In this document: positions 62,800 to 63,277 of the stretch, one piece after another
Layout: every line of letters starts with the position of its first letter
How positions within the stretch are numbered: the stretch's first letter is position 1
Source: Escherichia coli
GTDB lineage: Bacteria > Pseudomonadota > Gammaproteobacteria > Enterobacterales > Enterobacteriaceae
Reading direction: 5' to 3' (one strand)
Length of the DNA: 64,000 nt
Assembly: GCF_048403405.1 (NCBI RefSeq)
Contig: NZ_CP183129.1
Made by a program: the position numbers and the translations under genes
Notes under the pieces: model-generated
What the model was told of the DNA's origin: nothing
Seen by the model: the letters and a program-made list of their open reading frames with translations, nothing else
Databases searched by the model: none

Positions 62800-62821
62800 T
62801 TCTGTCTCCTGGCCTATCACT

Positions 62822-62867
62822 TGGTGAGAATGATCGTTCTCATTTTTGCTGATTATACGTTTCTCCA
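62822..62867 (-). promoter_or_regulatory. Candidate promoter and autoregulatory operator of the TetR-family gene
   Basis: Perfect -10 TATAAT on the minus strand (62867..62862) followed by inverted repeat TGAGAA-N6-TTCTCA (62822..62839) in the leader. Confidence 0.45.
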
Positions 62868-63277
62868 AAGTAATGGAAAGTATTTTTATCTTATTCATGG
62901 TGCATATTCTGATAATGAAGAGATTGTGGAGATTATGTGAAGATAGTTGACAATATTAAGTTGGGGTCAATTCATCAGAAAGGCTGCTACTTGTTGTCGC
63001 CAGTTCTGTTTTCATCATCAAACTTATCGGAGCTAATACGAATAGTTTCAGAGTCAGATTCTATAAGATATTCCCCCAACCTACCCCTTGCAGGCGTCAA
63101 GAGTAGATAACGCAAAATGCTCTGTACCGCAGCTTCTCTCCGGTACAGAAAGCGCAACTATAGCCACCCACAGCCAGGTTGATTATAATAACCGTTTATC
63201 TGTTCGTACTGTTTACTAAAACGACGAATCGCCTGATTTTCAGGCACAACAAGCATCAACAATAAGGATTAAAGCTA

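Follow-up and report, generated by a model that had tools for sequence, protein, structure and literature searches.

The window analysed here is a 64,000-nucleotide stretch of Escherichia coli DNA (contig NZ_CP183129.1), whose 3′ end carries sapF, the minus-strand genes eefD-eefC-eefB-eefA-eefR, and fabI, in that order. The last 9 kb of the window matched E. coli chromosomes at 100% identity, and RefSeq annotates on the identical DNA fabI (plus strand), a TetR/AcrR regulator, an RND adaptor, an RND permease, an outer-membrane factor, an MFS transporter and sapF; the roles of the regulator and transporter genes in Pfam and NCBIfam agree with this annotation. On the minus strand, eefR (62233..62799) encodes a TetR-family repressor of 188 aa plus stop (RefSeq WP_000202113.1), and eefA (60963..62084) encodes a periplasmic adaptor lipoprotein, assigned from RefSeq annotation, domain profiles and a start reading MKY...SGC. 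The genes eefB (57856..60963), eefC (56479..57852) and eefD (55307..56470), also on the minus strand and each assigned from its ORF, Pfam/NCBIfam and RefSeq, encode an RND permease, an outer-membrane channel and a Bcr/CflA-type MFS exporter, respectively. ATG 62117 was rejected as the eefA start, the conserved start being that of the MKY...SGC lipoprotein signal at 62084. The divergent neighbour fabI (63277..64000, plus strand) extends past the window end. The 100% DNA match, WP_000202113.1 and the four transporter genes identify this as the eefRABCD operon with its control region; the operon has been reported from E. coli by Pugh et al. (PMC12817139) and Shen et al. (Virulence 2025, PMC12482432).

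The eefRABCD operon of strain ATCC 35218 (PMC12482432) has the same locus, operator, start codon, gene order and fabI-sapF position, and the published primers and probes map to the window with 0-1 mismatch. The differences are strain-level SNPs only, for example TATAATC here versus TATAATT there, and none is functional; residue 26 of EefR is R here and L in ATCC 35218. E. coli genomes negative for eef match the window only from fabI to ~63154, which places the edge of the eef island there. An inverted repeat with 12-nt arms (63121-63132 and 63138-63149) lies just inside this edge, upstream of a fabI promoter-like site at 63161..63189.

The eefR promoter and transcription of the pump genes

A promoter scan located a −10 hexamer TATAAT at 62852..62857 and, across a 16-nt spacer, a −35 hexamer TTTCCA at 62874..62879, both on the minus strand; the pair shows 10/12 consensus matches, with a spacing inside the 16-18 nt of sigma-70 promoters. 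The perfect minus-strand TATAAT of the earlier note exists, but it sits at 62857..62852 rather than at 62867..62862, which is 10 nt off and reads TGGAGA. In 22 non-Escherichia loci, conservation was 0.92 for the −35, 0.83 for the −10 and 0.48 for the spacer between them, compared with 0.21 both from the operator to the Shine-Dalgarno sequence (SD) and from the SD to the ATG (0.21-0.55 for the spacers overall). The −35 and −10 thus appear as a phylogenetic footprint, and sequence and conservation together support the −10 assignment. An A-tract 5′ of the −35 (62883..62887, minus strand; 80-90% conserved columns) is possibly UP-element-like. The predicted transcription start is an A ~7 nt after the −10 (62844..62846, minus strand), placed from the −10 position; the −35, −10 and +1 given by Shen et al. 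(PMC12482432) are likewise predictions.

The window contains 14 TATAAT hexamers, so the −10 motif alone is not above chance, and a 1.5-kb region contains 6 promoter-like sites against 3.2 expected. As these motif counts are at chance level, the support for the promoter comes from its position, its cross-genus conservation and published experiments. The 316-bp reporter fragment of Shen et al. (PMC12482432) corresponds to 63115..62800 and drove GFP ~10-fold over background. A promoter belonging to eefR itself, as the earlier note proposed, is supported by these data.

Transcription beyond eefR has also been addressed experimentally. RT-PCR products crossed all five operon junctions in a derepressed mutant, so some transcripts read through, and in a ΔeefR strain eefA, eefB, eefC and eefD were up 83-, 28-, 43- and 27-fold, respectively (PMC12482432), which bears out the read-through past the terminator into the pump genes that had been suggested from the sequence. 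In the alternative arrangement, eefR would be a separate transcription unit and the pump genes would be expressed mainly from their own promoter in the eefR-eefA spacer, and both the conserved terminator after eefR and the conserved spacer length of 132-149 nt with its conserved blocks would suit it. However, neither the promoter scan nor manual inspection found a sigma-70-like site on the coding (minus) strand of the spacer, and RT-PCR spans the eefR-eefA junction (PMC12482432). Moreover, the "nonspecific" competitor of the published binding assays is 62230..62085, i.e., the spacer two bases short, and EefR binding was not competed by it, yet eefA-D rise 27-83-fold on loss of eefR (PMC12482432). 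We consider a separate pump promoter as the main source of eefABCD expression very unlikely, and a weak constitutive eefA promoter in the spacer may exist. Read-through from the eefR promoter into pump genes that have no recognisable promoter of their own means that one operator controls eefA, eefB, eefC and eefD.

The EefR operator

The dyad TGAGAA-N6-TTCTCA of the earlier note is present, although at 62842..62825, 3 nt away from the 62822..62839 given for it. More accurately, it is TGAGAACGATCATTCTCA (62825..62842, minus strand), an 18-bp palindrome that has GATC at its centre and a single mismatched pair. Perfect 6-N6-6 dyads number 20 in the window against ~16 expected, so the dyad alone is not significant; 18-bp palindromes with at most one mismatched pair number 8. 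Across genera the 18-bp form is TGAGAAYGATCRTTCTCA, with 97% column conservation in the 22 non-Escherichia loci, and it lies 37-47 nt 5′ of the ATG throughout the Enterobacteriaceae orthologues; variants with one or two mismatches occur in Erwinia, Pantoea and Serratia.

In E. coli the operator lies at ~+3 to +20 relative to the predicted start. Compared with Escherichia, the Enterobacter cloacae complex and Leclercia have a ~10-nt deletion, through which the final T of TATAAT doubles as the operator's first T; where the operator sits with respect to the promoter thus varies from genus to genus. The overlapping arrangement (TATAATGAGAAC...) was seen in loci L019, L020, L021, L023, L024 and L066 at ~2455-2500. 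Both positions, +3 to +20 or on the −10, would fit repression by occlusion.

Autoregulation through this dyad, predicted in the earlier note, is supported by published binding and reporter data. In EMSA, EefR binds TGAGAACGATCATTCTCA within the 129-bp probe P1, which maps to 62928..62800; binding was lost with a deletion probe ending at 62843, directly before the palindrome, and the shift was lost with half-site mutant probes, one of which carried a single-base change (PMC12482432). The reporter comparison with the repressor supplied, suggested as a check in the earlier note, is also available: GFP was shut off by wild-type EefR and not by V45E or R50S EefR (PMC12482432). Shen et al. reported TGAGAA-N6-TTCTCA to be unlike other characterised TetR sites (PMC12482432); their text gives N6 in the Results and N5 in the Discussion, and the DNA has N6. 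No natural inducer of EefR was found in the literature.

A dyad in the predicted 5′ UTR could also act as RNA, the 6-bp stem that it would form at the mRNA 5′ end serving as an attenuator or stabiliser rather than as a protein operator. Against this, the arms are invariant rather than covarying: no compensatory change was found in them across genera, and the variants CTCTCA, TTCGCA and TTCTCG break the symmetry and the pairing, which indicates a protein-binding DNA site and not an RNA hairpin. The Enterobacter site, overlapping the −10, would be transcribed only in part, and the EMSA binding is sequence-specific, being lost with single-base changes (PMC12482432). A leader hairpin is therefore extremely improbable as the function of the dyad, and we treat it as the EefR operator.

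Several features of individual sites were recorded in addition. The operator centre GATC (62832..62835) is a Dam methylation site, conserved as YGATCR in nearly all Enterobacteriaceae orthologues and not in Erwinia, Pantoea and Serratia. Escherichia sp. MOD1-EC7003 (L004) has an operator variant ending in TTCTCG, the kind of arm change that abolished binding in the published EMSA. A one-mismatch operator copy, TGAGGAGGGTATTTCTCA, lies at 62099..62116 (minus strand), 15 nt before the eefA ATG; 0.12 operator matches with at most one mismatch are expected per window. It was considered as a second EefR operator before eefA and rejected. Both the window and ATCC 35218 have the copy; E. albertii, E. 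whittamii and a divergent E. coli lineage lack it, and it is not conserved in other Escherichia species. It carries an A-to-G change in one half-site, the kind of change in the single-base probe MT-1 that failed to shift, and the "nonspecific" probe 62230..62085, within which the copy falls, did not act as a competitor (PMC12482432). The copy is probably not functional.

The start codon of eefR and the control region as a whole

The longest ORF at eefR is, as the earlier note stated, 62233..62898 (minus strand, 221 aa). The Pfam TetR_N domain (PF00440; E = 1.1e-15, 57.6 bits against a cutoff of 24, full-length profile) covers residues 49-95 of this ORF, close enough to the helix-turn-helix (HTH) first placed at 52-90, and residues 16-62 of the 188-aa form. 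The NCBIfam TetR models align from residue 6-14 of EefR onward; two profiles for the all-helical C-terminal domain of ligand binding and dimerisation, TetR_C_31 (25.9 bits, cutoff 27.4) and TetR_C_6 (23.9 bits, cutoff 27), were both slightly under threshold. The internal ATG at 62799, (62898 − 62799)/3 = 33 codons from the upstream ATG, is preceded by the SD AGGAGA (62805..62810, minus strand), with 6 nt between AGGAG and ATG, and conservation in other genera is 62% over a GGAG-like block and 21% in the sequence on either side of it. No SD was seen in the sequence before the upstream ATG at 62898, which lies 5′ of the predicted transcription start.

With the 221-aa ORF as protein query, a search returned hundreds of homologues, almost all of 186-195 aa and covering only the C-terminal 81-85% of the query, and conservation in the alignment starts a few residues past the internal Met. 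The upstream frame was then compared in 26 orthologous loci among 80 related loci taken from species-representative genomes. In all 26, other Escherichia lineages included, a stop 2-32 codons before the aligned ATG closes the frame; the upstream ATG (−33) is kept in none, and most have no in-frame upstream start at all. The ATG at 62799 itself has a conservation of 1.0 in the 22 non-Escherichia loci. PGAP/RefSeq starts the 188-aa WP_000202113.1 at 62799 on the identical DNA, so the remark of the earlier note that the "annotated start" was too long, made where no annotation had been given, does not apply, while the internal start it preferred is the true one. Shen et al. (PMC12482432) likewise describe EefR as a protein of 188 aa with the HTH at residues 16-62 and a nine-helix AlphaFold3 model, and their His-tagged and complementing constructs begin at the ATG that maps here to 62799. 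With residues counted on the 188-aa protein, the resistance mutations V45E and R50S are in the recognition helix (PMC12482432). EefR starts at the internal ATG 62799 and has 188 aa. A further candidate, GTG 62820 (−7 codons), was rejected, having no SD and no conservation.

The 33-codon in-frame extension (62800..62898, minus strand) is non-coding and holds the promoter, operator and 5′ UTR; its frame is open by chance in E. coli. That the genuine EefR could be the 221-aa product of ATG 62898, extended at its N-terminus ahead of the HTH, is hardly credible: the frame is open in the window and in ATCC 35218, and one database cluster (P0005, 221 aa) has a similar extension, KRII(S/T)KNENDHSH, but that peptide is the translation of ACGTATAAT...AATGAGAACGATCATTCTCAC, i.e., of −10 and operator DNA, the frame is closed in all 26 orthologous loci, the ATG without an SD lies 5′ of a conserved promoter, DNA binding and full complementation were obtained with the 188-aa protein, and only the short-form numbering puts V45 and R50 into the recognition helix (PMC12482432). 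The published GFP fusion keeps the upstream ATG in frame, and some translation of the longer form may occur in E. coli proper.

Taking 62799 as the start, we regard as highly probable the explanation of the control region as a whole, namely a single EefR-repressed sigma-70 promoter with translation from ATG 62799 and read-through to eefABCD. The sigma-70 promoter at 62879..62852 would start transcription at ~62845. EefR dimers on the palindrome at the transcription start would block productive initiation by RNA polymerase and so exert negative autoregulation; where exactly transcription starts and that EefR represses by steric occlusion are both deduced. Repression would be relieved by EefR mutation or, presumably, by a ligand. 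Transcription would then pass eefR and in part the terminator, where termination is presumably partial, and eefABCD would be expressed.

Binding, autorepression, co-transcription and derepression were demonstrated experimentally by Shen et al. (PMC12482432), and the promoter, operator and start-codon interpretation has thus been known since 2025. Since start, promoter and operator are already published and correctly annotated, the present result on them is confirmation only. What the comparison made here adds is that the −35, −10, operator and start codon are conserved and that the long ORF is lost in relatives. This cross-genus footprint extends the published single-strain result to the family Enterobacteriaceae and shows the operator just downstream of the −10 or overlapping it.

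Related systems, distribution and the eefR-eefA spacer

Regulator-first, self-repressed efflux operons are known from emrRAB, with the MarR-type EmrR, and lfrR-lfrA, with the TetR-type LfrR. In these, as in eefRABCD, one operator at a single promoter governs regulator and pump alike; they differ from eefR in regulator family and operator. The terminator and two hairpins between regulator and pump are a feature of eefRABCD that is not known from emrRAB or lfrR-lfrA. AcrR-acrAB and TetR-tetA are divergent systems of TetR-family efflux regulators with a TetR_N HTH, a promoter-overlapping palindrome and negative autoregulation, whereas eefR is co-directional and co-transcribed with its targets. 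The eefABC genes of Klebsiella (Enterobacter) aerogenes encode an orthologous pump, and an A+T-rich upstream region is found here too, 62800-63050 having 30-38% G+C. H-NS reportedly silences eefABC in K. aerogenes, as Masi is said to have found in 2005; together with this G+C content, such silencing makes a second control layer possible. In E. coli, in contrast, loss of EefR alone suffices for derepression (PMC12482432).

At least 80% of the 1.2-kb eefR region was present in 2034 of 5426 complete E. coli genomes (~37%), and according to surveys in the literature the operon occurs in phylogroups B2, D, E, F and G (PMC12817139). Among more distant homologues, Serratia marcescens (L067) and Brenneria (L069), at 47-50% identity, have an eefA-like adaptor upstream of, and divergent from, the regulator, and many homologues in Erwinia, Pantoea and Kosakonia have no adjacent eefA. 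These divergent or eefA-less relatives indicate that only part of the Enterobacteriaceae has the co-directional layout with the regulator first.

Some "plasmids" listed as carrying eefRABCD (Table S6 of Shen 2025; NZ_CP141085.1, NZ_CP134663.1 and CP054253.1), the first of which is our locus L082, look like mislabelled pieces of chromosome. NZ_CP141085.1 has the chromosomal order ribA-pgpB-lapAB-pyrF-rnb-fabI-eefRABCD-sapFDCBA, NZ_CP134663.1 is 4.9 Mb, and all three are typed non-mobilizable. The published warning of plasmid spread may rest on these mislabelled records.

The eefR-eefA spacer (62085..62232, minus strand) is 148 nt long here and 132-149 nt in nearly all genera with a downstream eefA. 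Three hairpins were present in the fold of every spacer sequence, and the fold of the window sequence had a z-score of −4.2 against shuffles. H1, 3′ of eefR (62185..62212, minus strand; hairpin 62212..62195), reads GGGGGAU-AUUA-AUCCCCC followed by UUAUUUCAUU, i.e., a 7-bp stem with 5 G-C pairs, a 4-nt loop and the tail TTATTTCATT, with a stem energy of −13 kcal/mol. This G+C-rich hairpin followed by a U-tract has the form of an intrinsic (Rho-independent) terminator, and termination in vivo is predicted. H2 (CATTGCGAAAT-TC-ATTTCGCGATG) lies at 62165..62188 and H3 (TCCTCATTAA-TT-TTAATGAGGA) at 62111..62132, both on the minus strand, H3 being 27 nt before the eefA ATG and overlapped by the operator copy.

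With a covariance model derived from the Enterobacter/Lelliottia group, the spacer element was found in 34 loci and, within the window, only at the spacer. H1, both hairpin and U-rich tail, was seen in 34 loci, and 4 of its 5 modelled pairs show compensatory changes; such changes affected all 10 pairs of H2 across genera and 8 of the 9 pairs of H3, or 22 of the 24 spacer pairs in the model alignment (at least 34 loci, Escherichia to Cedecea). The share of cells that pair in this alignment is 93.5%; it is 79.2% in shuffles and ~50% with the partners slid. The covariance-model alignment is fitted to the structure; H2 covaries in a plain MAFFT alignment too, on which RNAalifold returned H2 only. 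H1 and H3 are out of register in the MAFFT alignment, which explains why only H2 was recovered from it and why the covariance-model alignment was needed. The diversity of the stem sequences indicates RNA structure rather than a protein site. A Rfam scan of 61900-63400 matched no family and gave only sub-threshold noise (E of 2.6 or more), and the three hairpins are not described in the eef papers of Shen et al. and Pugh et al.

The spacer loci of relatives (L002-L076) lie at ~3065-3220 of their sequences. In Escherichia sp. MOD1-EC7003 (L004, 3079..3205), a 124-nt insertion separates the eefR stop from H1. The inserted sequence belongs to a dispersed repeat, of which E. coli genomes have a median of 8 copies and which we take to resemble ERIC.

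EefR is the switch that silences a cryptic multidrug RND/MFS pump. Loss of function of eefR or of the operator derepresses the pump and raises resistance in AcrB-deficient cells (PMC12482432), and the correct start, promoter and operator matter for reading clinical variants. We tentatively suggest, as a possibility short of an even chance, that the spacer is an undescribed cis-regulatory RNA module, which might set or conditionally change the continuation of the eefR transcript into eefABCD mRNA, or its survival as such. If so, the spacer RNA would be a second, EefR-independent layer of control on this cryptic multidrug pump.
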